From: Candidatus Levyibacteriota bacterium
GTDB taxonomy: Bacteria > Patescibacteriota > Microgenomatia > Levybacterales > UBA12049
Assembly: GCA_016186625.1 (NCBI GenBank)
Contig: JACPLG010000008.1
Span: 80,689 to 144,688, forward strand
Direction: 5' to 3'
DNA length: 64,000 nt
Shown: positions 9 through 63,438 of the stretch, one piece after another
How the letters are laid out: the number at the start of each line of letters is the position of its first letter
Position numbering within the stretch: the first letter of the stretch is position 1
Program-made: the position numbers and the translations under genes
Notes under the pieces: generated by a model
What the model was told of the DNA's origin: nothing
Seen by the model: only the letters and a program-made list of their open reading frames with translations
Database searches by the model: none

Positions 9-305
9 ATGCCAACAGAGGGACGCAGCACTAGATCGGAATATTTTGTGAAAGGTACAGAGCCAACAAGCGAATCCGGGGTTTATAAGAAAAAGGATGA
101 TAAAGTTTACATTTGGCTCCGTGAATCCGATCCCGTCTCAACCGACGGAAAAAATAGATGGCAGGAAGGAATAGACAAATGGATTGAGGAAGTGCATAAA
201 GATGACCCACTATATCATCCGCCCGGAGAAGTTATTAATCCTCCAAGTAGTAGTTCGGAGACTCCAACGCCAAGTCCCACCACTTCCCCCACGCCCGGGG
301 TGTAA
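9..305 (+). CDS. C-terminal part of a hypothetical secreted protein with a Pro/Thr/Ser-rich tail (the ORF probably starts upstream of the window)
   Basis: Open frame from the window edge; ends in TPTPSPTTSPTPGV, a linker typical of surface proteins here. No recognisable catalytic motif. Confidence 0.3.
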   Translation: MPTEGRSTRSEYFVKGTEPTSESGVYKKKDDKVYIWLRESDPVSTDGKNRWQEGIDKWIEEVHKDDPLYHPPGEVINPPSSSSETPTPSPTTSPTPGV

Positions 306-338
306 AGCTAAAACCACACCCGGGGTGGAATAGGGTGG
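303..338. repeat. Partial copy of REP-2 family (ACACCCGGGGTGGAAT...)
   Basis: Resembles TTTACACCCCGGGTGTGGATTTA repeats at 13318, 22176, 37848, 38588, 52316, 52824. Confidence 0.35.
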
Positions 339-3628: not shown

Positions 3629-5860
3629 ATGCCCGATAATCAGGAGCAAATTGTTGTAAAAGAAAAATCAGGATTTATAAGAAGGGTTCTTGGACCAATT
3701 TTATCCCCCTTTGATAAGCTTTTTAGTATGCTTCCCAAGGATAAACGAAAACTAACACTCCTAATTATTACCCTGGCAATTCCCATAACTGTAATAGCTG
3801 CTCTTATTCAGCAGGAGCTAAGGGGAAGAGCTGCTGGAGAAAGACAGCTCATCATGGGAATGTCTAACAGAGGTGGTTATAGTAGTAAGGATGTTAATGT
3901 TCAAGGAATTAAAGAAGCAATAGAAACAATCAGGAGAGAAACAGGACGATATCCTGCCATTTATCCATTATGGGTAAATTTTGAAGAAAGTCCAGGAAGT
4001 GGTGACCCGAGAGCCTCTTTCCCTAGTAAAGAAATTACAGATTATTTAGATGCCAGAGGTATTGCTGTTGCTATTTTTATGCAGCCCGTTGGCCCTGGGA
4101 TTGGCAGAAATGACGGAAGGTTTATTTTCTCCTCTAATACCTCTTCGTCAGTACCAAATGGCCAGATTAAGTTTGATTCTTCAAATCCCTCAAGTATAAC
4201 AAGGATATATGTAAGTAAAACTTCTTCAGGCACTGAAAATCCTGCAGGGCTTGCTAATACCTGGGTTCCTGGCGCAAAGGCTTCTGTGTTCGGCTCTGAT
4301 TCAAGTGGGAATGTAGCCTATACTGATTCAAATTTTTTTGGTTTCACTGTTAACTCTAAGGCAGACAGCGGGACTTTCTGGACGCTCGGAGTAACTGTAA
4401 ATAGAGCTGGTAGTTTGTCCGGTATTTTTTCAAACGGAAGGCCTGTCTTCATTACGATGGCCGATACTTTTGCCAAAAAATACAGCAATCAATCAATCGC
4501 AAACGGATCGTTTGATCCATTTCTGCGGCAACTTGCACAGGCTGCAAGATCGTATGGGAAACCTGTTCTTCTTAGATATGCTCATGAAATGAATGCACAT
4601 TGGTTCCCATGGACAGTTGGACAACCAGACCCAAAAAAAAGTTATGGAAGATACGTGTATTTTAATCAGGGAAATACGCCTTCGAATTATGTAGCAGCAT
4701 GGAGACGTGTTTATACAGTTATAAAATTGGAAGCTCCGAATGTTAAATTATTCTGGGTTCCATCAAGAGTGGCTCCGACAAAACTTGATATATATGATGG
4801 TTTTTACCCCGGGAATAACTACGTTGATTATGTAGGGTTTGATGCTTATAGCGGTCTAGGCGGAAATAACCCTAAGAACTATATTTCTATGTATGACTCC
4901 TACAAAAGAGTTATGGAAAAGGTACTACAGCTTTCAAATAACAGAAAACCTGTTTTTATAGGTGAAACTGGAGTCAATTCTATAAATGTACCAAGCGGTT
5001 TTAGTAGAGCGGATTGGGTGAGGCGAGGATATAATGATGCATATAACGCATGGCCCAAGCTCGCAGGAATTATTTATTTCAACTTTGATATGAGAGATAC
5101 TGAGAACAATAACTGGTTATTATCTGCTTCTCCCGAAGCGTTGTCAGCATATAGAGATATAGCTTCAAGAGCCAAGTTTCAGGGTAAATTTGAGGAAGGA
5201 TCCACACCAACACCAACCCCAGTCCTTCCAACAGTTCCGCCAATTATAGTATCGCCTACCCCATCCCTAGGTATTTCAGCCTTCATAGAGTCAGGTGGAA
5301 GTGTGGTTATGGAAGCTGAGAATAATGACAAAAGATTTAATAGAGGCAATTATAGGTGGGCAGGTGCGGCACCGGATACTCCACTCACAGCAACCTCTGG
5401 ATATGTGAACGAAGGAACTAGAAAAGGATACACAGCAGTAAGACCAAATGATGATAAAGTAACTTATTTTGAAGGAGGATATAAAAAGGGTCCTGAAGTG
5501 GTGTATAACATTAATTTCTCTTCAACTGGAACATATTATGTTTACATGAGAAGCTCAGGTCCTGATAGCAAATCAGACTCAGCTCACTATGGTCTTGATG
5601 GCGCCTATGATGGCACTATAGCCTTATATTATAGAGGGGAGGGGGGTGCTTCAACTAATTGGCAGTGGAAAGGAAATAATAATGATGGAACAAAAGCTAG
5701 AATTAGAGTTACTACTCCTGGAATTCATACGTTCCATATATACATGCGAGAAGACGGGACACAAATCGATAGAATTCGACTTTTTAAAAATTCTTCCTGG
5801 ACTCCATCACCAGGTCCTGCTGCAGATGGTCCTTCAGAAAGTCTAAGAGGGAAATTCTAG
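3629..5860 (+). CDS. Membrane-anchored glycoside hydrolase family 26-like protein with PT-linker and C-terminal beta-sandwich (CBM-like) domain
   Basis: N-terminal TM helix; LLRYAHEMNAHWFPW matches the GH26 acid/base signature (AHEMN..W..W); FIGETGVNS matches the nucleophile GE.G region; TPTPTPVLPTVPP linker. Confidence 0.55.
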   Translation: MPDNQEQIVVKEKSGFIRRVLGPILSPFDKLFSMLPKDKRKLTLLIITLAIPITVIAALIQQELRGRAAGERQLIMGMSNRGGYSSKDVNVQGIKEAIETIRRETGRYPAIYPLWVNFEESPGSGDPRASFPSKEITDYLDARGIAVAIFMQPVGPGIGRNDGRFIFSSNTSSSVPNGQIKFDSSNPSSITRIYVSKTSSGTENPAGLANTWVPGAKASVFGSDSSGNVAYTDSNFFGFTVNSKADSGTFWTLGVTVNRAGSLSGIFSNGRPVFITMADTFAKKYSNQSIANGSFDPFLRQLAQAARSYGKPVLLRYAHEMNAHWFPWTVGQPDPKKSYGRYVYFNQGNTPSNYVAAWRRVYTVIKLEAPNVKLFWVPSRVAPTKLDIYDGFYPGNNYVDYVGFDAYSGLGGNNPKNYISMYDSYKRVMEKVLQLSNNRKPVFIGETGVNSINVPSGFSRADWVRRGYNDAYNAWPKLAGIIYFNFDMRDTENNNWLLSASPEALSAYRDIASRAKFQGKFEEGSTPTPTPVLPTVPPIIVSPTPSLGISAFIESGGSVVMEAENNDKRFNRGNYRWAGAAPDTPLTATSGYVNEGTRKGYTAVRPNDDKVTYFEGGYKKGPEVVYNINFSSTGTYYVYMRSSGPDSKSDSAHYGLDGAYDGTIALYYRGEGGASTNWQWKGNNNDGTKARIRVTTPGIHTFHIYMREDGTQIDRIRLFKNSSWTPSPGPAADGPSESLRGKF

Positions 5861-9526: not shown

Positions 9527-9551
9527 CCTTCCCACTTTCCATGTGGGAAGG
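9527..9551. repeat. REP-1 copy (CCTTCCCACTTTCCATGTGGGAAGG)
   Basis: Perfect hairpin palindrome; same family flanks RAYT at 31129-31776. Confidence 0.7.
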
Positions 9552-9558
9552 TAGATAC

Positions 9559-9996
9559 TTATTCCGGAAATAAGAATTCTAGAATTCTAGACTGGTCTTC
9601 TATTAAAGCCCTTGGCTCTGGAAACGCTAGTGTTGAAGTATTTAAAACATCTGGAGATGAAAAATCTGCATGACATGTTAGTATTGTTCCGTCAGGCAAA
9701 ATTACCCAATCCATACTTAATACGTCTCTCACGCGGCTTAAGCGTAAGATAGGCGTTTTTGATGTTACATCTGGGATTTCTCCATGTCCATCCTGAATTG
9801 GCTTGGACCCTTTCATGATGTGTGTTTTAAAACGGTCAGGATCAACGATTTGTATTCGCCTAATTATTGTGCCTAGATGCCAAGCAATCTGAGCAGCATG
9901 GTGAATATAAAATCCCTCTAGTCTTGTTCTGGAAGAATCGCGTCCGTCTAATTTAGGACGAGAATCTGGTGTCAGACCTGGTATTTCTCCTGCCAT
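9559..9996 (-). CDS. Hypothetical protein (weak DinB/YfiT-like HH..Q His-rich motif)
   Basis: 145 aa; GFYIHHAAQIAWHLG; no confident family. Confidence 0.35.
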   Translation of the reverse strand: MAGEIPGLTPDSRPKLDGRDSSRTRLEGFYIHHAAQIAWHLGTIIRRIQIVDPDRFKTHIMKGSKPIQDGHGEIPDVTSKTPILRLSRVRDVLSMDWVILPDGTILTCHADFSSPDVLNTSTLAFPEPRALIEDQSRILEFLFPE

Positions 9997-13317: not shown

Positions 13318-13362
13318 TTTACACCCCGGGTGTGGATTTAAGTTTACACCCTAGGATTTGTG
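13318..13362. repeat. REP-2 copy (TTTACACCCCGGGTGTGGATTTAAGTTTACACCCTAGGA)
   Basis: Two-part repeat identical in structure to copies at 52316 and 52824. Confidence 0.65.
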
Positions 13363-18653: not shown

Positions 18654-18677
18654 CCTTCCCACATGGAATGTGGGAAT
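18654..18677. repeat. REP-1 copy (CCTTCCCACATGGAATGTGGGAA)
   Basis: Palindromic hairpin of the REP-1 family. Confidence 0.65.
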
Positions 18678-22127: not shown

Positions 22128-22262
22128 TTTCAATGGGGTCGGATTTGGGATTTTGGGAAATCGAAACCACCCCCGAAACCACCCCGGGGGTGGAATTAGG
22201 TTTACACCCTAGGAATTTTCTATAGATTTTTCCTCAATGGGGTCGGATTTGGGGTTTTGGCG
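22128..22262. repeat. REP-2 copy (22176-22218) flanked by ~30-bp direct repeats CAATGGGGTCGGATTTGGGRTTTTGG
   Basis: The second direct repeat encodes the MFS C-terminus (QNPKSDPIEEKSIE); the first is a duplicate downstream of the stop codon. Confidence 0.5.
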
Positions 22263-29057: not shown

Positions 29058-30032
29058 TCACTTACTTTTTCCTAAAATCAAAGCAAGGAGTGCCATTCGG
29101 ATATACATACCGTTTCTAATTTCCGAGCGAAGGTACACCGCATTTGGATTTTTATCAACTTCCGGAAGTATTTCGCCAACGCGGGGCAAAGGGTGCATAA
29201 AAATCGTGTTTTTACCAGCCCTCTCTTTTATAAGTTTGTTATCAAGTACAAAGCGATTTTTTACCTTTTCATACGCGCTTTCGGACTTAAACCTTTCTTT
29301 TTGAACTCTTGTCCAATACCAAAAATCCGCATTTTTTGGAATATCTTTCTCCGATTCAATTTCTACCAACTCTAGCTTCCCACTTTCCATGTGGGAACTC
29401 AGATCTTCCCTGCTTAATCGAAGCTCTTTTGGGGAAAGAAGATAAAGTTTATTACCATTGAACTTTGAGAGACCCCGGATTAATGAATGGATTGTTCTTC
29501 CATTTAACATATCTCCTGCCAAAACTCCTATTAAATTATCTAGTTTTTTTGTTCGCTCATAAATTGTATAAAGGTCAAGCAAAGCTTGTGTGGGGTGTTC
29601 TCCGATTCCGTCACCTGCATTGATAACAGGAACAAACCCAGCTGCCTGGGCTGCCTTAAGCGTCGCTCCTTTCTTTGGATGCCTGAGGACAATTACATCA
29701 CAGTAAGCCTCAAAAACCCTGATCGTATCCTCAAGACTTTCCCCCTTTGAAACCGATGAAAAATGTTCTGGATCAAGAATTTCAACAGTTGAGCCTCCAA
29801 GTTGTTTTACTGCTGCGACAAATGATCCGAAGGTTCTACTTGACGGTTCATAAAAAATAAGGGTAACAATGTTACCCTTAAGAAGATCCGAAGGTCTTGC
29901 GTTTTTGGCAATTAGAAGCATGCCCACGGTTTTCTTAAAAAGAATAGATATGTCCTTAGGGGAAAATTGATCCAGAGAAATAATATCTTTACCTTTGTAT
30001 TTACCATTTATGGGCTCAATCGGACTGACCAT
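29058..30032 (-). CDS. pyrB: Aspartate carbamoyltransferase catalytic subunit
   Basis: FYEPSSRTFGSF (STRTR-type motif), MHPLPRVGEI (HPLPR, ATCase-type rather than OTCase HCLP); adjacent to carAB. Confidence 0.8.
   Translation of the reverse strand: MVSPIEPINGKYKGKDIISLDQFSPKDISILFKKTVGMLLIAKNARPSDLLKGNIVTLIFYEPSSRTFGSFVAAVKQLGGSTVEILDPEHFSSVSKGESLEDTIRVFEAYCDVIVLRHPKKGATLKAAQAAGFVPVINAGDGIGEHPTQALLDLYTIYERTKKLDNLIGVLAGDMLNGRTIHSLIRGLSKFNGNKLYLLSPKELRLSREDLSSHMESGKLELVEIESEKDIPKNADFWYWTRVQKERFKSESAYEKVKNRFVLDNKLIKERAGKNTIFMHPLPRVGEILPEVDKNPNAVYLRSEIRNGMYIRMALLALILGKSK
29376..29397. repeat. REP-1 copy lying in-frame inside pyrB (encodes ...SSHMESGK...)
   Basis: CTTCCCACTTTCCATGTGGGAA within the pyrB ORF. 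Confidence 0.6.
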
Positions 30033-30139: not shown

Positions 30140-31093
30140 GTGAAGAAACACTTCGTTTTCTTTGTTTGCATACTGATAATAGCAGGGAGCGGTTTTGGTC
30201 TTTTTGTGTATCACCAAAAATCACTAGCCAGAAATATTTACTCCCCTCTTCCGGACTCATTGAACAAAAAGGAAAATCCAGAGGTTATGAGTCTTGATTT
30301 TTGGCTGCCGAGTCTGTTTGGTTTTTTTGACAGCGATGATGTCCCCGCGCTTAGTGCAAAATCGGTGTTGGTTTATGATCTTTCGGAAGAAAAGACAATT
30401 TATGAGAAAAATTCCAAAGATCGGCTTCCTATGGCATCTCTCACTAAAATTATGACTGCAATGGTGGCAATTGACCACAAAAGAGAGGATGATCGCTATA
30501 CTATATCTTCAGAGGATCTGGTTGGAGAAAATACAATCGGACTCTCGGCTGGAGAATCAATGAGTTTGGAAGAGCTTCTTTATGGTATTTTTATGTATTC
30601 TGCAAATGAAGCCGCTGAGGCACTTGCATCTAATACTTTAGGCCGCGAAAGTTTTATCAAGGCCATGAATGACAAGGCAAAAGCGCTCGGCCTTGAAAAC
30701 ACAAATTTCACCAACCCAACGGGTTTTGAAGGCGATGGAGACCAATATACTACAGCTTATGACTTACTCGTACTCTCGCGATATGCTGTCACAAACTATC
30801 CTCAAATCATAAAAGCATCAAGCACTGAGAAAATTTTTATTCCGCAAACAGAAGATCACTATGCATATGATATGTATAACCAGACAAATTTAATAACTTC
30901 CTATCCCGGTGTAAAAGGTTTAAAAGATGGATATACTCCCGAAGCAGGGCTTTGTCTGGTTACATATCTTGATTACGGCGGACATAAAATTATAGGAATT
31001 ATTCTGGGAAGTGAAAACAGAAGGCAGGAAATGAAGTCGTTGCTTGATTATTCTCTCCGCCAACAAGGCATCGAACCCCCACCCCACAGCTAA
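30140..31093 (+). CDS. D-alanyl-D-alanine carboxypeptidase (peptidase S11, PBP5-like)
   Basis: SLTK (SxxK), SANE (SxN), KDGYT (KTG-like); N-terminal TM anchor. Confidence 0.8.
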   Translation: MKKHFVFFVCILIIAGSGFGLFVYHQKSLARNIYSPLPDSLNKKENPEVMSLDFWLPSLFGFFDSDDVPALSAKSVLVYDLSEEKTIYEKNSKDRLPMASLTKIMTAMVAIDHKREDDRYTISSEDLVGENTIGLSAGESMSLEELLYGIFMYSANEAAEALASNTLGRESFIKAMNDKAKALGLENTNFTNPTGFEGDGDQYTTAYDLLVLSRYAVTNYPQIIKASSTEKIFIPQTEDHYAYDMYNQTNLITSYPGVKGLKDGYTPEAGLCLVTYLDYGGHKIIGIILGSENRRQEMKSLLDYSLRQQGIEPPPHS

Positions 31094-31097
31094 TGTA

Positions 31098-31120
31098 CCT
31101 TCCCACATGGAAAGTGGGAA
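31098..31120. repeat. REP-1 copy flanking RAYT-1
   Basis: CCTTCCCACATGGAAAGTGGGAA. Confidence 0.7.
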
Positions 31121-31128
31121 CACAGAAT

Positions 31129-31776
31129 TCAGTCATCGATGTCGATTAGAGAATCAAAAAGCGCCGGGTCAATATCATTAGTTTCCTCGACAAAACTTTG
31201 ATAGTCTCTTTCTGGATTCGATCGCGCAAAATAAGAAAGAATAAAACCTGTATCACAAAAAACATGTTTTTCCCCATAAATATAGTTACAATAAGACGAA
31301 TATGGGTAAACTCTACATTCACACATGGAAAGTGGGAAAGGGTTTCGGTGAATATATTTTGACAGTTGCAGAAGATGCCCATCGCTTTCAATATACTTTG
31401 CTTTAAAACTTCCTTGAAACAGTGGTCCTACTCTATCGTACTTAGTATTGAAATACCTTGTATAACTGTCTGATAATTTTCTTAGAAAGTGTGTAATGCC
31501 ATTATCGGTTAATTGTTTGACTAGGAGATGAAAATGGTTAGGCATCAAGCAAAAACAAAAAATACTTACTAGTTCTGTTTGGCTGTCTACTTTCTTAAGT
31601 TTAACGATTCCCCTTCTGTAGTCAGATAGTTTCATGGGCTGAGGAGATTTTCGATAAAAGTCCAGAGTTTCTAAAAATCTAAGATAGTCCCACCTATCCA
31701 AAAAGATATCTCTTTTTTCCACACCTCTATTATAAATGTGGAAGAATCCGTCGGTGATAAAAGGAGGATTCTTCAT
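31129..31776 (-). CDS. REP-associated tyrosine transposase (RAYT; IS200/IS605 TnpA-like HUH Y1 transposase), family 1
   Basis: HIYNRGV, MPNHFHLLV (HUH), YIHRNP (catalytic Tyr); flanked by REP-1 copies on both sides. Confidence 0.8.
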   Translation of the reverse strand: MKNPPFITDGFFHIYNRGVEKRDIFLDRWDYLRFLETLDFYRKSPQPMKLSDYRRGIVKLKKVDSQTELVSIFCFCLMPNHFHLLVKQLTDNGITHFLRKLSDSYTRYFNTKYDRVGPLFQGSFKAKYIESDGHLLQLSKYIHRNPFPLSMCECRVYPYSSYCNYIYGEKHVFCDTGFILSYFARSNPERDYQSFVEETNDIDPALFDSLIDIDD

Positions 31777-31806
31777 AAGCGTAATATATTAATTTAACCA
31801 TAAGTA

Positions 31807-31831
31807 CCTTCCCACATGTCAAGTGGGAAGG
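31807..31831. repeat. REP-1 copy flanking RAYT-1
   Basis: CCTTCCCACATGTCAAGTGGGAAGG. Confidence 0.7.
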
Positions 31832-31896
31832 TAAACTTTCCCTCTGGAGCTTGGGTTTGATATGCGCTTCTTATCCTTGTATAATATTAGCTACGC

Positions 31897-31979
31897 GCCG
31901 CGGTGGTGGAATGGTAGACACGAAGGCCTTAAGAGCCTTTGCCCTCACGGGTGTGAGAGTTCGAGTCTCTCTCGCGGTA
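31897..31979 (+). tRNA. tRNA-Leu (anticodon TAA), preceded by a TTGTATAAT -10
   Basis: GCCGCGGTGGTGGAATGGTAGACACGAAGGCCTTAAGAGCCTT...GAGAGTTCGAGTCTCTCTCGCGGTA. Confidence 0.8.
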
Positions 31980-31981
31980 CC

Positions 31982-32015
31982 GGGGACTAGCTCAGTTGAA
32001 GTAGCGACTAATTTT
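31982..32015 (+). pseudogene. tRNA 5'-fragment (acceptor + D-arm only)
   Basis: GGGGACTAGCTCAGTTGAAGTAGCGACTAATTTTC then intact tRNA-Pro begins. Confidence 0.3.
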
Positions 32016-32089
32016 CGGGGTGTAGCGTAGTTGGCTAGCGCGCCTCGTTTGGGACGAGGAGGTCGTCGGTTCGAATCCGACCACCCCGA
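32016..32089 (+). tRNA. tRNA-Pro (anticodon TGG)
   Basis: CGGGGTGTAGCGTAGTTGGCTAGCGCGCCTCGTTTGGGACGAGGAGGTCGTCGGTTCGAATCCGACCACCCCGA. Confidence 0.8.
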
Positions 32090-32099
32090 CTGGAAGTAT

Positions 32100-32411
32100 T
32101 TAAGGTTGGCCTTCTTCGAGATATGGGACGGGAATATCAGTTTCTAGTGCCCTATTTGATAATGCTACTTCTATGGCTCCAATTTGCTCATCAGTTGGAT
32201 CAGGTATGTCTCTCTTTGCAGCAATTGTTGCTGTGCTCCATCTTACATCAGCATGAAACCTTCGATCAATTTCAGCAACAAAACTTGGGTCAGGACCATC
32301 TAATTCTTCCGTTGTGTGGGATTGCTCATTTAGCCCAGGTCCATTAACTACTCGTGGAATAAAGGGAATCGGTCCTAAAAATGCCTCGTGTCTTGAAGAA
32401 CTATTTGCCAT
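32100..32411 (-). CDS. Hypothetical acidic protein
   Basis: 103 aa; GC-richer; weak RBS; no motif. Confidence 0.3.
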   Translation of the reverse strand: MANSSSRHEAFLGPIPFIPRVVNGPGLNEQSHTTEELDGPDPSFVAEIDRRFHADVRWSTATIAAKRDIPDPTDEQIGAIEVALSNRALETDIPVPYLEEGQP

Positions 32412-32466
32412 AATTAATCCGCAATATAAATCATCTATAGCTATAAGTCAAGAAAGCAGAATCTGA

Positions 32467-32598
32467 GCGGGTGAAGGGAATCCCATTCGACTTCGCTCAG
32501 GGTAAACTTCTCATCCCTTCACGCTGGATTCCACCAGCCCACCGCGAATGGTGAGCAATTCGTCATGAGCTCATTGTCGAATGACTTGTCGAATCCAG
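32467..32598. repeat. MITE-like element at the tRNA-Gly 3' end, bounded by a partial duplicate of the tRNA 3' end (GAGCGGGTGAAGGGAATCCC)
   Basis: Intact tRNA 3' AGAGCGGGTGAAGGGAATCGAACCC at 32598-32621 and partial copy at 32467-32488; between them ATTCGAC...GTCGAATGACTTGTCGAA. Confidence 0.5.
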
Positions 32599-32669
32599 AG
32601 CGGGTGAAGGGAATCGAACCCTCGTATCCACTTTGGAAAAGTGGTGTTCTGCCATTGAACTACACCCGC
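32599..32669 (-). tRNA. tRNA-Gly (anticodon TCC)
   Basis: GCGGGTGTAGTTCAATGGCAGAACACCACTTTTCCAAAGTGGATACGAGGGTTCGATTCCCTTCACCCGCT. Confidence 0.8.
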
Positions 32670-32862: not shown

Positions 32863-33534
32863 TTATTCTTTTGGAGTTGGAGTTACGGATGAGAGATCGC
32901 TTCCTACAATAACTAATACTTCCCCATCTTCTCCAGTGGCAAATTTTTCAATCTTACCAACCGGCCCTCTTTCTTCAAGAACTTTTGTGAGTTCTTCTAT
33001 AAATTCTTCCGCAACGTCACTATTTACAGTTATAATTGTTTCCGTATAGTTTGAATTGTCGGCATTCCCTACGGTAGAAACTACAAATCCAGCACCTTCA
33101 AGAAGCTCTTTTACCCGTGCTCCCTCTCCGGCTATGCCGCTGCCGTTTTGCACTTCAATTTCATAAGCTTTCCTGTCTACATCTACTTTCGTTGGGGTTG
33201 GTGAAGTTTGCGGTAGTTTGATTGACTTTTCAGGCTTATCACTTAAAAAGCTGGGATTGAAGTTCTGGCTGAAAAAAAGAAAACCCCCAAACATCAAAAA
33301 TCCTACGGGAACGACAACCAGTATTATTAAAAGGATTTTTTTCCAGCTGATTCCTCCCGAGCTCTCAATTTCATCGAGGCTGTCTGCGGTTTCCTCAGGC
33401 TTAACCTCAGCCGGAGCCTGGTCTGTGGTCTTATCATCACCGGCTTTTTCTTCGTTTTCTTCCACCTCAATAGTAACTTTTGCTTCCGGTATTTCAGTTA
33501 CTTTTTTTATTCTTTTAGGTTTTTTCTCGGCCAT
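32863..33534 (-). CDS. LytR_C-domain membrane protein
   Basis: Acidic N-terminus, one TM, EIEVQNGSGIAGEGARVKELLEGAGF...TETIITVNSD (LytR C-terminal domain pattern). Confidence 0.5.
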   Translation of the reverse strand: MAEKKPKRIKKVTEIPEAKVTIEVEENEEKAGDDKTTDQAPAEVKPEETADSLDEIESSGGISWKKILLIILVVVPVGFLMFGGFLFFSQNFNPSFLSDKPEKSIKLPQTSPTPTKVDVDRKAYEIEVQNGSGIAGEGARVKELLEGAGFVVSTVGNADNSNYTETIITVNSDVAEEFIEELTKVLEERGPVGKIEKFATGEDGEVLVIVGSDLSSVTPTPKE

Positions 33535-34642: not shown

Positions 34643-34730
34643 CGCAAAATCGCTGGATTGGGAGTGTCGGTTTTGCGAATCAATAAAGGGAAAATCGTTG
34701 GGAAAAAACCGTTAGGTTTTGTCCCATTTA
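34643..34730 (+). repeat. Conserved tRNA-upstream element (copy 2)
   Basis: CGCAAAATCG-CTGGATTGGGAGTGT-CGGTTTTGCG ... GGGAAAAAACCGTTAGGTTTTGTCCC; stem changes relative to copy 1 are compensatory. Confidence 0.5.
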
Positions 34731-34772
34731 GGCCCTGTAGCTCAACGGATAGACCTGCCCGCTAAGCAGCAT
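34731..34772 (+). pseudogene. tRNA 5'-fragment (acceptor + D-arm + degenerate anticodon arm)
   Basis: GGCCCTGTAGCTCAACGGATAGACCTGCCCGCTAAGCAGCATG; no T-arm. Confidence 0.35.
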
Positions 34773-34855: not shown

Positions 34856-34911
34856 AGGCAGGGCGAGTGCGTTCTAAGCACCAGGTTGGGGGTTCGATTC
34901 CCTGCCTGCCG
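34856..34911 (+). pseudogene. D-arm-less partial tRNA-Arg(TCT) copy
   Basis: GGCAGGG-CGAGTGCGTTCTAAGCAC-CAGGTTGGGGGTTCGATTCCCTGCCTGCC; same anticodon loop GTTCTAA as the neighbouring tRNA. Confidence 0.4.
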
Positions 34912-35072
34912 GCAGGCAGGCCTCCGGGGTCGCACTTCGGCATCAGTCCGGCAAACTCATGACAAGAGCTCAGTGCAAGCTGAGTTTGACGAAGCGACCT
35001 GAGGGATGAGAAGTTTACCCTGAGTACTTCGGTTTACTCAGCATAAACGAAGTCGAAGGGATTCCCTCCAGG
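34912..35072. repeat. MITE-like repeat with partial tRNA 3' duplicate (GATTCCCTCCAGGGTC)
   Basis: cgaagtcgaagggattccctccagggtc; CCTGAG and TCGAA motifs as in the other copies. Confidence 0.35.
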
Positions 35073-37847: not shown

Positions 37848-37903
37848 TTTACACCTTTACACCCCGGGTGTGGATTTACCTTGACACCCCAGGGATTTAG
37901 ATT
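37848..37903. repeat. REP-2 copy flanking RAYT-2
   Basis: CTTTACACCTTTACACCCCGGGTGTGGATTTACCTTGACACCCCAGGGA. Confidence 0.65.
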
Positions 37904-37917
37904 TAAAGTTAGTTTAT

Positions 37918-38580
37918 ATGCCAAGAAGGAGATTTGTTTTAGCTACCAATGAAACTTACCACATATATAACAGGTCTGTTGCTAAGGAGTCGATATTTTC
38001 TTCAGCTACTTGTTTAAACAAGATAATCGAGATATCAGACTATTATCGATACCATCAAGAGCTTAGGCTGTCTAAGTTTAAAAAATTACCCGTTGATCAG
38101 AAAAAGAGCTATTTAGATTCGATTAAGAACAGGGAGAAACTTGTAGACATCTATTCATTTGCTTTTATGCCTAATCACTACCATTTCTTATTGAAACAAC
38201 TGGTCGATAATGGAATCGTAAATTTTATTTCTAATTTTCAAAATAGTTTTGCTAAATACTTTAATATAAAAAATGATCGAAACGGTGCTTTATTTCTGAA
38301 CCCCTTTAAAGGAAAAAGAATAGAGTCTGAAGACCAGTTTGTTCATGTCTCAAGATATATTCACCTAAATCCTGTCACTTCATACTTGGTTGAGTTTAAA
38401 GACTTACCAGATTATCCTTGGACTTCTTTTAGAATCTACCATTACGGTTTAAATTTATTTGTAAATACTAAGCTGATACTGGAGAGTTTTAAATCCATAA
38501 AGAGTTATTACAATTTTGTGGAAGATCAAGTAGATTATCAAAGAAGTCTTGCTTTAATAAAGGATTTAGTTCTTGAGTGA
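37918..38580 (+). CDS. REP-associated tyrosine transposase (RAYT), family 2
   Basis: HIYNRSV, MPNHYHFLL (HUH), YIHLNP (Tyr); flanked by inverted REP-2 copies. Confidence 0.8.
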   Translation: MPRRRFVLATNETYHIYNRSVAKESIFSSATCLNKIIEISDYYRYHQELRLSKFKKLPVDQKKSYLDSIKNREKLVDIYSFAFMPNHYHFLLKQLVDNGIVNFISNFQNSFAKYFNIKNDRNGALFLNPFKGKRIESEDQFVHVSRYIHLNPVTSYLVEFKDLPDYPWTSFRIYHYGLNLFVNTKLILESFKSIKSYYNFVEDQVDYQRSLALIKDLVLE

Positions 38581-38587
38581 TTTACCT

Positions 38588-38630
38588 AATATCCTAGGGT
38601 GTAAACCTAAATTCACCCCCGGGGTGTATG
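38588..38630. repeat. REP-2 copy (inverted orientation) flanking RAYT-2
   Basis: CTAGGGTGTAAACCTAAATTCACCCCCGGGGTGTA. Confidence 0.65.
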
Positions 38631-41224: not shown

Positions 41225-42385
41225 CTACATTAAACTGAGGAGGTTGGGCCTTATTCCAAATGTTGAATAAAGATCGTTGAGCGTCATTTCGGGATGTTTT
41301 TTACGCCGAGACTCCGACTCAGAAAGTATTTTACGCATTGAACTCTCCTCACCCGATATAGCTTCCGCAACTCTGGGCGTAGACATGGATCCATCGATGA
41401 AAGACTGTAAAACACTTTGGACATTCACAAAACCCTCCGACTGCAACCAAACTTCCTCTATCAGGGAGCGAACAATTTTTCTAAGTACGTACGAGTGCCT
41501 CTTATTTCCGGGCATTAACCCTTCTGCTGTTAGCTCATCTATCACGCGACAAAGATTCGCCATGTAATGAGCATCCAAATCAGAGATATGACCAAATGTA
41601 CCCTTGAATTGCTCCGCTAGCTTTCTCCATGGCATCAATGAAAATTTATTTTCACCTGTTAGTGCACGTTCAACCCTGCCCATGCCCAGGCCCACATCAA
41701 ATGCCGTGTGTTCAAAAGGAACTACTGATGTGCCTTCGGAAATTCCATCAATGTCCACAATCCTACCAATCTGCAGACAATCAGATAAGTCTTGATTCTG
41801 ATCATAGCCTTCTGAAGCGAACCACGCGATTACCCCACGCCCGTGCAGGTCCCCTTCTCCAAAGCTCCATTCATGCTTCAATACTTCAGGGTCTTCAATG
41901 ATACGAACCTGATTTGGGTCTAGAGAGGCAGACCTTAGTGCCGACTCTAGAGGATGACCTCCAATTGTAGAGAATATTAGGTTCTTTTTGTTAAGCCCCA
42001 GTGCACTTAACATATCAACAAAATATTCCATTGCCTTATCATGACTCACATTGAAAAGACCGCTGCCAAGCATGTGAAATAATGATGTATAATTTATATC
42101 TACACGAGCAGTGTCAAAAGTGCCGCCAGTTCCACCTAAGCGAAGACATTTTTGTATAAAAGCAAAATTGGAAGGGGTCGTATCACCGGAGAACATCGAT
42201 TTGAACGGAGTGATTGTCGCATTAGTAAACAAAACTGTGGGATCGTCAATGACTAATGGGAAAGAATCGTGCGTCGTAAATCCATTGTCTTGATGATATT
42301 CCAGAAATGAAGATTTTATAGATTCTACTACAGCGACTTCTTTATCTTGATGATATTCCTGAGGTGAAGATTTTATAGATTCCAT
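41225..42385 (-). CDS. Standalone alanyl-tRNA synthetase catalytic-domain paralog (no editing or C-Ala domains)
   Basis: DPTVLFTNATITPFK, IQKCLRLGG...TSLFHMLGSGLFN, DVGLGMGRVERAL, HSYVLRKIVRSL align to AlaRS residues about 1-370 (LLFTNAGMNQFK, CVRAGG...HTFFEMLGNFSFG, DTGMGLERI, RGYVLRRIIRRA). Confidence 0.7.
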   Translation of the reverse strand: MESIKSSPQEYHQDKEVAVVESIKSSFLEYHQDNGFTTHDSFPLVIDDPTVLFTNATITPFKSMFSGDTTPSNFAFIQKCLRLGGTGGTFDTARVDINYTSLFHMLGSGLFNVSHDKAMEYFVDMLSALGLNKKNLIFSTIGGHPLESALRSASLDPNQVRIIEDPEVLKHEWSFGEGDLHGRGVIAWFASEGYDQNQDLSDCLQIGRIVDIDGISEGTSVVPFEHTAFDVGLGMGRVERALTGENKFSLMPWRKLAEQFKGTFGHISDLDAHYMANLCRVIDELTAEGLMPGNKRHSYVLRKIVRSLIEEVWLQSEGFVNVQSVLQSFIDGSMSTPRVAEAISGEESSMRKILSESESRRKKHPEMTLNDLYSTFGIRPNLLSLM

Positions 42386-42509
42386 TACAGCGACTCCTTA
42401 GATGCTGGGCAAGTTTTATAAAAGTACAGTATAGTATCATAATGAACTAATCTTGTAAAATAATTAAAACTACCTTCATTAAATGAGAACAGACCATGAA
42501 GGGTATCTA

Positions 42510-52177: not shown

Positions 52178-52315
52178 AACTTTATTATAGACTTATTTAA
52201 CAAGAAAAGTTGGAGGAAAAAGTATGTCAGGGGTAATTATAGCAGAAGATACCATATTTTAAGAACAAGAAAATCCTTAAGATTACATCCAAGCGTAAAT
52301 TCAAGCTTACACAGT

Positions 52316-52358
52316 TTACACCCCGGGGGTGGATTTAGCTTTACACCCCAGGATTTAA
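52316..52358. repeat. REP-2 copy upstream of C39-like gene
   Basis: TTTACACCCCGGGGGTGGATTTAGCTTTACACCCCAGGA. Confidence 0.65.
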
Positions 52359-52404: not shown

Positions 52405-52806
52405 GTGTCTATGAAAGCCGTGAGACAAGAGCATTTTTCAGGATGTGCTGTTGCTTGTGTTGCATTTGTTTTACGAACAAACTATAAAAGCGCACTTAAG
52501 AGTTTTGATAAAGGTTCGGAAAGAGCCCGAATTCGTGGTTTTTATAGCCGCGAGATTATTGTTGCACTTGAAAGAAATGGGCTTAAATACGCTCTTAAAT
52601 ATGTGGGAAGAAAAAAGAATGATGATTACCCTAAAGGCACAATTGTCTTTACCAAGAGAGACTCAAAACGACCTTTCGGACATTATCTTTGCAAAACAGA
52701 AAAAGGATGGATGGATCCATGGATAAATTTCCCAAGACTGAGTGCTAAAGCCGGCTTTCGCAAACACCTCCCCGGAAAAGCAGTTTATGCAATAATAAAA
52801 CATTGA
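52405..52806 (+). CDS. Small peptidase C39-like (papain-fold) domain protein
   Basis: SGCAVACVAFVL (Cys) and FGHYLC...GWMDPW (His, Trp), in the order expected of C39-like peptidases. Confidence 0.45.
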   Translation: MSMKAVRQEHFSGCAVACVAFVLRTNYKSALKSFDKGSERARIRGFYSREIIVALERNGLKYALKYVGRKKNDDYPKGTIVFTKRDSKRPFGHYLCKTEKGWMDPWINFPRLSAKAGFRKHLPGKAVYAIIKH

Positions 52807-52823
52807 AATTTCCGCTCCTAGGT

Positions 52824-52866
52824 TTACACCCCGGGTGTGGATTTAGCTTTACACCCCAGGAGTTTG
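52824..52866. repeat. REP-2 copy downstream of C39-like gene
   Basis: TTTACACCCCGGGTGTGGATTTAGCTTTACACCCCAGGA. Confidence 0.65.
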
Positions 52867-58216: not shown

Positions 58217-58239
58217 CTTCCCACATGGAAAGTGGGAAG
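58217..58239. repeat. REP-1 copy
   Basis: CTTCCCACATGGAAAGTGGGAAG perfect palindrome. Confidence 0.7.
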
Positions 58240-58253
58240 CAAGTTCTTATTAT

Positions 58254-59528
58254 TTGTTTATGAAACGAGTGATTCTTCATATTGACTTCGATTCGTATTT
58301 TGCATCTTGCGAACAGCAGTTTGACCCAACGCTGCGAGGCAAACCGATTGGAGTTACCGCAACAAACGGCAGGACTTGTATTATTGCCGCAAGTAGAGAA
58401 GCTAAAAAGCTTGGAATTCCCAGCGTTTCAAGAGTTTGGGAGGCGCGGAAGGTTTGCCCGCAGCTAATTACAGTTGGGGCTCATTTTGAAAAATATTGGG
58501 AAATAACCAAGCTTTTCTTAAATATTTGCAAAGATTACTCCCCTTATGTTGAGCTATTTTCACTGGATGAAGTATTTATTGACATAACTGGGACAGAAAA
58601 TTTGTTCGGCGGAAGATATAAGATTGTTGGGACAATAAAAAGCAGAGTGGAAAAAGAAATTGGTGAATATATTACTGTTTCAGTCGGACTTTCTTACAAC
58701 AGACTTCTTGCCAAACTTGCTTCAGGACTGAATAAACCTAATGGTTTCGTTGAGATTGGCCCAACGGACGTTGAGAAAGTTTATTCAAAAATAAAATTAA
58801 CAGATTTTTGTGGGATTGGGGCTCGTATTGAGCGGCGCTTAAACAAGATTGGTATTTATACTCCTTTACAGCTTCGTGCCGCCTCTTTGGAAGTTTTGAT
58901 TGCCGAATTTAAAGACGTTGAAGGTCATTTTTTGAAAAAATTAGGTTTGGCCCAAGATGATTCGGAAGTTATCCCCTATTATTTAGGAGGAGAAACCAAG
59001 TCTGTAGGTAGAAGTTATTGTCTTCCAAAGAACGAATATGATCAAAGGGTAATTTTACAAAACATATATGAACTTTGCGAAGAAATAGGGATAAAGCTTC
59101 GCCGGCTAAACAAAAAAGCAAAAACCATTGGGCTGTATTTGGGAGGAGGACAAAATCATCACGGTAGAAAAACGGTAACCGATTATATTGACTGGGGTTC
59201 TGATATTTTTGGTTTGTGCAAGGCTTTATATAACGAATGGGAGTTTGAAAAACTATCTCGCGAGGAAGGAATGGTAAGGCAAATCAGTGTTTGGGCCGGA
59301 AATTTAGAAGACGGTTCGAACCTAACCCTATTGCTTTTTGATCAGCCCAAAAGTTCAAAACTCCAAAAAGCAGTAGATCAAATAAATGAAAGATTTGGGG
59401 ATCACACAATTAGAAATGGTTTTGTTCACAACTGCCCAAATCTTAAGACTGTACCCAATGGCTATATGGCAGATAAATTTGAAAGACAAAAATTAGCGAA
59501 GGAGTTCAGAGACTACATACAAAATTAG
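58254..59528 (+). CDS. dinB: Y-family DNA polymerase IV
   Basis: ILHIDFDSYFASCE (Y-family motif I), SVGLSYNRLLAKLAS, HhH region. Confidence 0.85.
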   Translation: MFMKRVILHIDFDSYFASCEQQFDPTLRGKPIGVTATNGRTCIIAASREAKKLGIPSVSRVWEARKVCPQLITVGAHFEKYWEITKLFLNICKDYSPYVELFSLDEVFIDITGTENLFGGRYKIVGTIKSRVEKEIGEYITVSVGLSYNRLLAKLASGLNKPNGFVEIGPTDVEKVYSKIKLTDFCGIGARIERRLNKIGIYTPLQLRAASLEVLIAEFKDVEGHFLKKLGLAQDDSEVIPYYLGGETKSVGRSYCLPKNEYDQRVILQNIYELCEEIGIKLRRLNKKAKTIGLYLGGGQNHHGRKTVTDYIDWGSDIFGLCKALYNEWEFEKLSREEGMVRQISVWAGNLEDGSNLTLLLFDQPKSSKLQKAVDQINERFGDHTIRNGFVHNCPNLKTVPNGYMADKFERQKLAKEFRDYIQN

Positions 59529-63390: not shown

Positions 63391-63396
63391 AATGCG

Positions 63397-63438
63397 TGCA
63401 CCCGTAGCTCAATGGATAGAGCACATCGCTTCGGATCA
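63397..63438 (+). pseudogene. tRNA-Arg(TCG) 5'-fragment (acceptor + D-arm + anticodon loop CTTCGGA, no T-arm)
   Basis: GCACCCGTAGCTCAATGGATAGAGCACATCGCTTCGGATCAC; no matching 3' half downstream. Confidence 0.4.

Follow-up and report, generated by a model that had tools for sequence, protein, structure and literature searches.

A RAYT-like transposase of Levybacteria and its mini-hairpin, which recurs beside and inside the transposase gene and in host genes

Introduction

Repetitive extragenic palindromic (REP) sequences and the REP-associated tyrosine transposases (RAYTs) that accompany them offer the textbook example of a transposase that has been domesticated and has its own mini-repeat population; how the enzyme is controlled and how repeats and enzyme are matched is a question that is still unsettled. 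In the Escherichia coli REPtron (TnpA_REP with REP sequences and bacterial interspersed mosaic elements, REP-BIME; structure 4ER8) the gene for a single-tyrosine (Y1/HUH) enzyme is flanked by a short stem-loop, which is also dispersed in the genome. In the Pseudomonas REPIN-RAYT systems (Bertels and Rainey; PMC3116915, PMC5581495), whose repeats (REPINs) are REP doublets, the transposase is single-copy and vertically inherited, and lineage-specific repeats co-evolve with the enzyme. The insertion sequences (IS) of the IS200/IS605 family, such as IS608 and ISDra2, apply HUH/Y1 chemistry to hairpins in single-stranded DNA (ssDNA) and carry directly oriented subterminal hairpins at their two ends; the family is known to behave in a strand-specific manner (PMC6006769). 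REPs located inside genes are already known, and in Xanthomonas the same site of recB was struck in different lineages (PMC3733652). Here we describe a transposase gene, RAYT-1, and its hairpin family in a 64-kb stretch of DNA from Candidatus Levybacteria, a member of the candidate phyla radiation (CPR). The whole stretch analysed, 64,000 nucleotides long, is called the window. The locus is likely to be a REPtron-like unit, composed of a vertically inherited, probably single-copy RAYT-type Y1/HUH transposase and a cognate mini-hairpin.

Results

RAYT-1 and its hairpin family in the window

RAYT-1 is encoded by a 215-aa open reading frame (ORF) at 31129..31776 (-), which contains the motifs HIYNRG, NHFHLL and YIHRNP. 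The protein scored 35.7 bits against the Pfam family PF01797 (Y1_Tnp), above the cut-off of 23, which bears out the claim of an earlier note on this DNA that the ORF encodes an HUH/Y1 transposase; the enzyme is of the IS200/RAYT type. The HUH motif is H81-F-H83, preceded by N80, and the catalytic tyrosine is Y141 (Y141-I-H-R-N145). Residues H81, H83, Y141, H143 and N145 were invariant among 45 homologues. In the AlphaFold2 (AF2) model built from these homologues (pLDDT 81.8) a helix comprising residues 132-144 carries the catalytic tyrosine. The best fold match of the model in the PDB was 4ER8, the complex of E. coli TnpA_REP with a REP hairpin (E 9e-6), followed by the IS608, ISDra2 and IS200 transposases; the Foldseek probability was 1.00 for 4ER8, 2VJV, 2XO6, 2A6M and 2F4F. 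RAYT-1 is a Y1/HUH transposase. An identical protein, encoded on a contig of 238,547 bp, is on record as a transposase of a Candidatus Levybacteria metagenome-assembled genome (MAG), so the CPR assignment of the host, suspected from the outset, holds.

The hairpin family was delineated by searching the window with the pattern CTTCCCACATGGAAAGTGGGAAG, allowing at most three mismatches. Seven copies were found, against none in 100 dinucleotide-preserving shuffles. The repeat had been described as a perfect palindrome; it consists of 7-8 bp arms (TTCCCAC/GTGGGAA) that enclose a loop of 7 nt, itself not palindromic, which reads ATGGAAA, ATGGAAT or ATGTCAA. The best copies have an 11-bp stem, extended by TACC/GGTA, and as ssDNA they reach folding energies of -10 to -11 kcal/mol, with z near -5. 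The 5′ flank has the consensus yTA[C/G][C/G], 1 nt off the stem, and the 3′ side often mirrors it within a longer palindrome. A scan against Rfam returned tRNAs only: the hairpin matches no RNA family described there.

RAYT-1 is bracketed by two copies, as the earlier note had stated. The upstream copy (31805..31833, core 31808-31830, +) lies 32 nt before the start codon and folds at -11.2 kcal/mol (z -5.7); it has an 11-bp stem (TACCTTCCCAC/GTGGGAAGGTA), and its loop reads TTGACAT on the RAYT coding strand. The downstream copy (31099..31121, +; -5.8 kcal/mol) lies 8 nt past the RAYT-1 stop codon and 6 nt past that of a convergent gene (30140..31093, +) for a dacB-like D-Ala-D-Ala carboxypeptidase (Pfam Peptidase_S11). 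A third copy lies in frame inside the transposase gene (31317..31339, +; -3.2 kcal/mol). By the polarity of their loops all three are in direct orientation. The earlier note had listed copies elsewhere as well, and four dispersed copies were found in the 64 kb. Three of these are intergenic: the copy at 9528..9550 (-), with an 11-bp stem, lies about 9 nt past the stop codon of the ORF 9559-9996(-) and is sense to it; the copy at 18655..18677 (+) lies between two convergent ORF ends (18645 and 18704); the copy at 58217..58239 (+) lies 15 nt upstream of, and sense to, a dinB/IMS-family gene (58254-59528). The fourth (29376..29398, -) is not intergenic but lies inside pyrB (29058..30032, -), the gene for aspartate carbamoyltransferase (Pfam OTCace_N and OTCace; PDB alignments), where it is in frame, has sense polarity and encodes S-S-H-M-E-S-G-K. 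All copies listed earlier were present, at coordinates one base off from those first given.

Association of the hairpin with the transposase gene in related genomes

One genome per species (GTDB species representatives) was scanned for the hairpin TTCCCACATGNNANGTGGGAA. It was found in Daviesbacteria, Levybacteria and other Microgenomates MAGs. Seven of the hairpin loci encode a relative of RAYT-1, six at 67-71% identity and one at 42%. The six close orthologues (L005, L041, L044, L056, L058, L065) have three hairpin copies each: one upstream, 22-32 nt from the start codon, one at a shared codon within the gene, and one just past the stop codon. The same three-hairpin layout was present in L066 and L067, and in the closest relatives, L151 and L152 (82-83% identity).

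To these loci we added 79 further ones fetched from metagenomes, encoding proteins with 38-70% identity to RAYT-1. In nearly all of the 86 loci an 11-mer found 30-100 nt upstream of the gene recurred just past its stop codon, which indicates that flanking hairpins are general in the RAYT-1 family. The sequence of the hairpin differs by transposase lineage and matches between the two flanks of the gene in nearly all of 82 related loci.

The convergent dacB neighbour is common to the RAYT-1 loci of the window, L151 and L152, and this shared context in related genomes indicates vertical inheritance of the unit within the RAYT-1 subclade. In L148 the 3′ end of the gene and the downstream hairpin adjoin dacB; in the more distant relative represented by L149/L150, dacB is followed directly by tRNA genes, without a transposase. 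The window contains RAYT-1 once, with no long repeat that takes in the gene, and most protein clusters occurred on one contig. Conservation between orthologous RAYT-1 loci begins exactly at the upstream hairpin.

Several observations were made in passing on these loci. The tRNA-Leu/tRNA-Pro pair beside RAYT-1 (31897-32669 in the window) is inverted relative to L149 (2563-2924), where dacB is followed by tRNA-Gly, tRNA-Pro and tRNA-Leu, and the window has the extra ORFs 32100-32411 and 32863-33534: there is a local rearrangement beside RAYT-1. Gene callers ran several RAYT homologues (P0007, P0024, P0055, P0095, P0112 and others) through the flanking hairpins, creating spurious N-terminal (..FPxxRWE.., 7/120 proteins) and C-terminal tails (..EC[IV]PT[FS][HD]VG, 8/120). 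The Microgenomates-type hairpin is borne by a number of records (binchicken co-assembly MAGs) named 'uncultured Gammaproteobacteria bacterium' (L005, L008, L009, L011, L022, L028, L029, L031, L033, L035, L036, L039, L041, L043, L058, L060, L061, L064, L065). Several of them bear RAYT-1 orthologues (67-70%) or homologues of further window genes (30-54% identity), and the name looks wrong. Finally, the arms TTCCCAC/GTGGGAA also occur in a different, abundant palindrome family of giant sulfur bacteria, cTCG-TTCCCACATG-S-CATGTGGGAA-CGAG/TGCAG (Thiomargarita, Beggiatoa-like and Thiotrichales loci L006, L010, L014, L016-L018, L020, L032, L037, L038, L046, L048-L051, L055, L057, L062); no RAYT-1 relative was seen in these 8-kb loci.

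Hairpin copies inside the transposase gene

The copy inside RAYT-1 (3 mismatches) encodes F147-P-L-S-M-C-E153, directly after YIHRNP; we refer to this position as site B. The earlier note had regarded it as a degenerate copy. A degenerate accident does not account for it: the copy is kept at codon 147 in all close orthologues, and distant relatives with other hairpins carry them at the same position. What separates YIHxNP from YPYSS in many of these relatives is a palindrome whose sequence is far from that of the RAYT-1 hairpin, for example AAGTTGACAGGGT-nnn-ACCCTGTCAACTT, CCTGCGAGGAG-A-CTCCTCGCAGG or CAAGGCC-A-GGCCTTG, and in relatives at 38-48% identity it matches the flanks of its own gene over 15-28 nt. 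A second internal hot spot, site A, lies at about nt 135-180 (residues 45-60). Some loci, among them L085, L110, L112 and L139, have four copies, one at site A and one at site B in addition to the upstream and downstream ones.

A neighbour-joining tree of 82 proteins was divided into groups I-III, and the interior of each gene was compared with its own flanks, scoring a longest common string of at least 13 nt. Such a string was present in 2/32 loci of group I, the clade with the canonical motif YIHLNPVxSxLV that includes the second transposase of the window (RAYT-2, see below), in 7/8 loci of group II, in which all eight loci have a copy at site A, and in 23/42 loci of group III, which includes RAYT-1. 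The control value, from 820 cross-locus pairs, was 1.8%. For groups II and III together the internal copy matched its own flanks in 30/50 loci. In summary, sequence comparison identifies in-frame copies of the gene's own flanking hairpin as a conserved feature of two clades of this CPR transposase family.

Sites A and B correspond to the two loops of lowest confidence in the AF2 model (residues 58-60 and 147-156). Site B comprises 10-14 aa where it contains a hairpin, compared with 12-15 aa in hairpin-free relatives. Among close relatives the loop of the internal copy varies: the window has TTTCCAT, L152 TTGACAT and L151 TTAAGAT. Two of these three internal loops equal that of another copy in their own unit, namely the downstream copy in the window and, in L152, the upstream copy, with which the internal copy is identical over 25 nt. 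Internal loops that differ among relatives and equal copies of their own unit point to repeated replacement, not slow drift.

Hairpin copies in host genes

The repeats are not simply extragenic: about 40% of the copies away from transposase genes lie in frame inside host genes. In other Microgenomates genomes we found 25 copies in ORFs of at least 150 aa outside transposase genes. Twenty-four were sense, with the ATGNNAA loop on the coding strand, and one antisense; most read xSHMxSG[N/K]. The copies in RAYT genes had the opposite polarity (antisense, 10/10) and read FPLxxWE. Stop codons do not explain the bias, since most of the antisense frames contain none. Away from transposases, intergenic copies were sense to the nearest ORF in 14 cases and antisense in four, with a ratio of 10:2 at 3′ ends.

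Two genes allowed a comparison of filled and empty sites. Alanine racemase (alr) of L013 exceeds those of the window, L015 and L061 by exactly eight residues. The pyrB site is empty in L145/L148 and has eight additional codons in L147, four in L146 and one in the window; the 21-nt core is identical in all three filled genomes, in which neighbouring synonymous sites differ. SHMESGK is present at the pyrB site in eight of the closest pyrB proteins, that of the window included. The filled and empty orthologues of alr and pyrB indicate real gain of hairpin copies, and the +8/+4/+1 series is consistent with insertion and later trimming that left the core unchanged. Templated replacement in pyrB, considered because no net insertion was apparent, was abandoned in view of this series in the DNA of the relatives. 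In the empty-site comparison with L021 the site showed a local rearrangement.

Two explanations of the polarity were tried: the first was rejected, and the second found no support. If RAYT genes were transcribed by read-through from host genes antisense to them, the inverted polarity would follow; the neighbours of RAYT genes had no consistent orientation, only frequent convergent 3′ ends. If polarity followed the direction of replication, it should not alternate with local gene direction along the window, as it does; no clear skew switch was seen.

Three pyrB proteins of other lineages (P0127, P0166, P0170) have another insert, SFEKL[TA][SF][HN]P[WK]G[GV]K, at the loop that corresponds to 29376-29398 of the window. 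The pyrB loop is a recurrent landing place, and this other insert perhaps derives from another hairpin family. In L011 two hairpins, at 5171 and 5651, are separated by 480 nt, the spacing between the upstream and internal copies of RAYT-1 units. The pair lies in sense orientation in a 227-aa ORF, which tblastn does not recognise as a transposase; the pair might represent a unit that has decayed and is read on the opposite strand.

The upstream copy and the promoter region

On the coding strand, 11/12 loci of the RAYT-1 clade have TTGAC[A/G] in the loop of the upstream copy, whereas the loops of the internal and downstream copies vary. Downstream of this hexamer, 7/10 close loci have a -10-like box after 18 nt and the start codon after a further 5-7 nt. 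The lack of a Shine-Dalgarno sequence gives this arrangement the geometry of a leaderless promoter. Its sequence makes the TTGACA of the upstream loop a candidate for the -35 box in most orthologues. The upstream hairpin of the window was itself considered as a sigma-70-type promoter and dropped, none being called there, though orthologues have the promoter-like arrangement.

A second transposase/repeat pair and other features of the window

The window contains a second RAYT-like gene, RAYT-2 (37918-38580, +; 220 aa), with the canonical YIHLNPVTSYLV motif and without an internal repeat. The earlier note had reported a second, unrelated transposase/repeat pair. The pair is present, and its two parts differ in this respect: RAYT-2 is a paralogue of RAYT-1 (38% identity), and only the repeat families are unrelated in sequence. 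The RAYT-2 repeat, REP-2, is 39 nt long and forms two hairpins (TTTACACCCCGGGTGTGGATTTAGCTTTACACCCCAGGA). It has seven copies in the window, at 293-331(-), 13318-13356, 22176-22214, 37856-37894, 38592-38630(-), 52315-52353 and 52823-52861, and inverted copies flank RAYT-2. This is a classical REPIN-like arrangement.

Between the direct REP-2 copies at 52315 and 52823 lies a 133-aa ORF (52405-52806, +) without a Pfam match and unlike either transposase. Three fragments, 34727-34765, 34860-34914 and 63394-63432, resemble the neighbouring tRNA-Arg genes; ARAGORN and Rfam called none of them, and they may have arisen as tRNA remnants or by duplication. A 57-nt tandem duplication (88% identical) is located at 42285-42398, at the 5′ end of the ORF 41225-42385(-).

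Discussion

The results can be accommodated in the following scheme. RAYT-1 would bind its hairpin as ssDNA, and HUH cleavage and rejoining would copy or replace a unit of about 24 nt, i.e. eight codons; it is probably the RAYT-1 enzyme that copied the hairpins. If the enzyme acts mostly near its own gene, the gene and its flanks would collect and refresh copies. In-frame copies would survive in tolerant loops alone, i.e. at site A (residues ~45-60) and at site B after YIHRNP, and repeated replacement would keep the internal copies matched to the flanking ones. The upstream loop would, in most orthologues, serve as the -35 box of a leaderless promoter, and binding or extrusion of the hairpin would shut the gene off. 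The polarity in host genes might result from strand-specific insertion into the non-template strand or from selection at the level of mRNA or peptide. Both the mobility of the RAYT-1 system and its autoregulation are what we infer from this picture. A wider version, which is possible and which we offer tentatively, is that two clades keep their own recognition hairpin at two fixed loops, in step with the flanks by virtue of the enzyme's swapping of hairpins; that this, with the -35 box in the upstream loop, makes up a self-sensing circuit limiting expression; and that the codon-neutral 24-nt unit has been spread by the enzyme into host genes with a fixed polarity, as an 8-residue tag (mostly SHMxSG[N/K]) of proteins throughout these minimal genomes.

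Several points weigh against the interpretation of the locus as a REPtron-like unit. Its classification as a RAYT is favoured by the TnpA_REP fold, the flanking and dispersed hairpins and the lineage co-variation; the earlier note's RAYT assignment stands in these respects. It does not extend to the flanks, which are direct, or to the score against the RAYT equivalog NCBIfam NF047646 (REP_Tyr_transpos), which was 39.3 bits, below the cut-off of 80. Searches of PDB sequences, with RAYT-1 or with the 45-sequence profile, found ISDra2 alone and marginally (E 0.18-1), which is why the fold comparison was needed. Binding, cleavage and copying by RAYT-1 would follow from membership of the family and from co-variation. 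The copy number given here is a count within the 64-kb window. At site B of the window a TGG>TGT change (W>C) breaks the stem, and the internal copy folds poorly for this reason. The hairpin-coded motif [FL]P[LH]xxWE was kept in 81 of the 120 closest homologues, half kept in 12 and lost in 23; its loss indicates that the internal copy is dispensable. A codon test of the internal stem in nine orthologues (CTT 9/9, CCA 8/8, GAA 9/9) was suggestive, although weak alone: about 10 of 94 background columns were also invariant. At the window's own upstream copy neither a prediction tool nor a scan called a sigma-70-like promoter. A related genome retains the pyrB hairpin without a RAYT at the syntenic site, and peptide tolerance could explain part of the intragenic sense bias.

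These points must be set against other explanations of the same data. The unit might be an autonomous IS of the IS200/IS605 type, in which the flanking hairpins mark the left and right termini, the unit moves as a whole, and solo hairpins are remnants of ends or tiny non-autonomous derivatives. The direct orientation of the flanking copies is that of IS200/IS605 ends and differs from the inverted REPs of classical RAYTs, the fold also matches TnpA of IS608 and ISDra2, and conservation between orthologous loci has its boundary exactly at the upstream hairpin. However, there is a single RAYT-1 in 64 kb with no long repeat including the gene, and RAYT-2, at 38% identity, is accompanied by another repeat; the dacB neighbour shared by three related genomes indicates vertical descent, and most protein clusters occupy one contig. 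Full units are far fewer than solo hairpins, and at 215 aa RAYT-1 greatly exceeds the IS200-type TnpA proteins among the PDB matches (125-165 aa). By the multi-copy criterion the RAYT-1 unit is not an IS200/IS605 element, and we regard this explanation as improbable. Alternatively, the hairpins could be cis-elements of the host (stabilisers of mRNA 3′ ends, attenuators or sites for a host protein) maintained by selection, which the transposase shares or by which it is regulated, without spreading them. Such a role would suit the strong sense polarity relative to host transcription, including that of copies just past stop codons, the invariance of the 21-nt pyrB core amid varying synonymous sites, and the genome that has the pyrB hairpin and lacks a RAYT at the syntenic site. 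It is hard to reconcile with a hairpin that changes wholly between lineages and still matches the flanks of its own gene, which calls for a specific partnership of protein and hairpin. The closest structure, moreover, is that of an enzyme crystallised on such a hairpin, and the filled and empty sites represent recent gain in unrelated genes. Most copies are not followed by a T-run, and the 1.1-kb segment 30900-32000 gave one terminator-like call, compared with a mean of 0.8 in shuffles. Overall, a host cis-element seems unlikely to us.

A narrower alternative concerns the internal copies, which might be neutral hitch-hikers: independent insertions that survived in two tolerant loops, with no regulatory role and no active homogenisation. 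Sites A and B are the least ordered parts of the model, the motif is lost in ~20-30% of close homologues and damaged in the window, and inserts of this kind also occur in unrelated host proteins, all as expected of hitch-hikers. On the other hand, deep clades with unrelated hairpins have them at the same sites, which implies either many independent hits or concerted change during long retention; site B is no longer with a hairpin than without; and the internal loop equals a flanking copy of its own unit in close relatives that differ from each other. Purely neutral insertion consequently strikes us as a poor prospect for the internal copies, and the REPtron-like unit described above is the interpretation that we retain.

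In this family the match of repeat and enzyme can be seen in the gene itself, whose coding sequence contains the hairpin at two fixed loops, where it changes with the flanks across many lineages; this offers a direct and testable handle on autoregulation and on concerted evolution in HUH enzymes. The host genes, for their part, exemplify how compact CPR genomes accommodate a mobile repeat in frame, in proteins and with one polarity. Annotation is affected by the additional 8-residue inserts and by ORFs extended through hairpins, and in-frame hairpins are natural markers of permissive protein loops.

Comparison with known systems

Among described systems the E. coli REPtron is the closest in structure. 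TnpA_REP is the best structural match to RAYT-1, both are Y1/HUH single-tyrosine enzymes, and in both cases the gene is flanked by a short stem-loop that is also dispersed. The tag containing TA[C/G] that adjoins the foot of the RAYT-1 stem is reminiscent of the GTAG tag (PMC3733652). Unlike TnpA_REP, to which it is ~13% identical, RAYT-1 remains below the NCBIfam RAYT cut-off. Its flanking hairpins are direct, not inverted, with a 7-bp, AT-richer stem in a unit of ~24 nt; the gene contains its own hairpin in frame, many copies are intragenic, and the host is a CPR bacterium.

With the REPIN-RAYT systems of Pseudomonas the RAYT-1 system has in common a vertically inherited, probably single-copy transposase, lineage-specific repeats and co-evolution of repeat and enzyme. 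It is RAYT-2/REP-2 of the same window that fits the Pseudomonas pattern, with inverted two-hairpin units on both sides, whereas the RAYT-1 repeats are single hairpins, not doublets, and are of modest density, with seven copies in 64 kb. In-frame copies inside the transposase gene and a sense bias in host genes are likewise absent from the open-access descriptions of REPINs consulted. From IS200/IS605 elements, with which it shares HUH/Y1 chemistry on ssDNA hairpins and direct hairpins at both sides, the RAYT-1 unit differs in that it is not repeated and is syntenic between genomes. Its protein is 60-80 aa longer, and both 'ends' are the same hairpin, which occurs on its own and within genes as well.

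Rickettsia palindromic elements (RPEs) and the intragenic GTAG/CGTC REPs (PMC3733652) are likewise palindromes inserted in frame that do not destroy the host gene, and pyrB parallels recB in Xanthomonas (PMC3733652), one site of a gene being struck by different lineages. The RAYT-1 unit is shorter, however: 21-24 nt (8 residues), compared with at least 20-30 residues in most reported inserts. The 24:1 polarity of the RAYT-1 hairpin and the regular use of the transposase gene itself as a host set it apart as well. In the open-access literature we found no link of REPs or RAYTs to CPR bacteria and no description of repeat copies inside RAYT genes. Nor did the open-access RAYT/REP literature yield in-frame copies of a gene's own hairpin at two fixed loops that change with the flanks, a unit of only 21-24 nt, a comparably high intragenic fraction with near-absolute polarity, or a CPR host. 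Set beside these relatives, the RAYT-1 system seems to be a variant, undescribed so far, of the known RAYT/REP systems.

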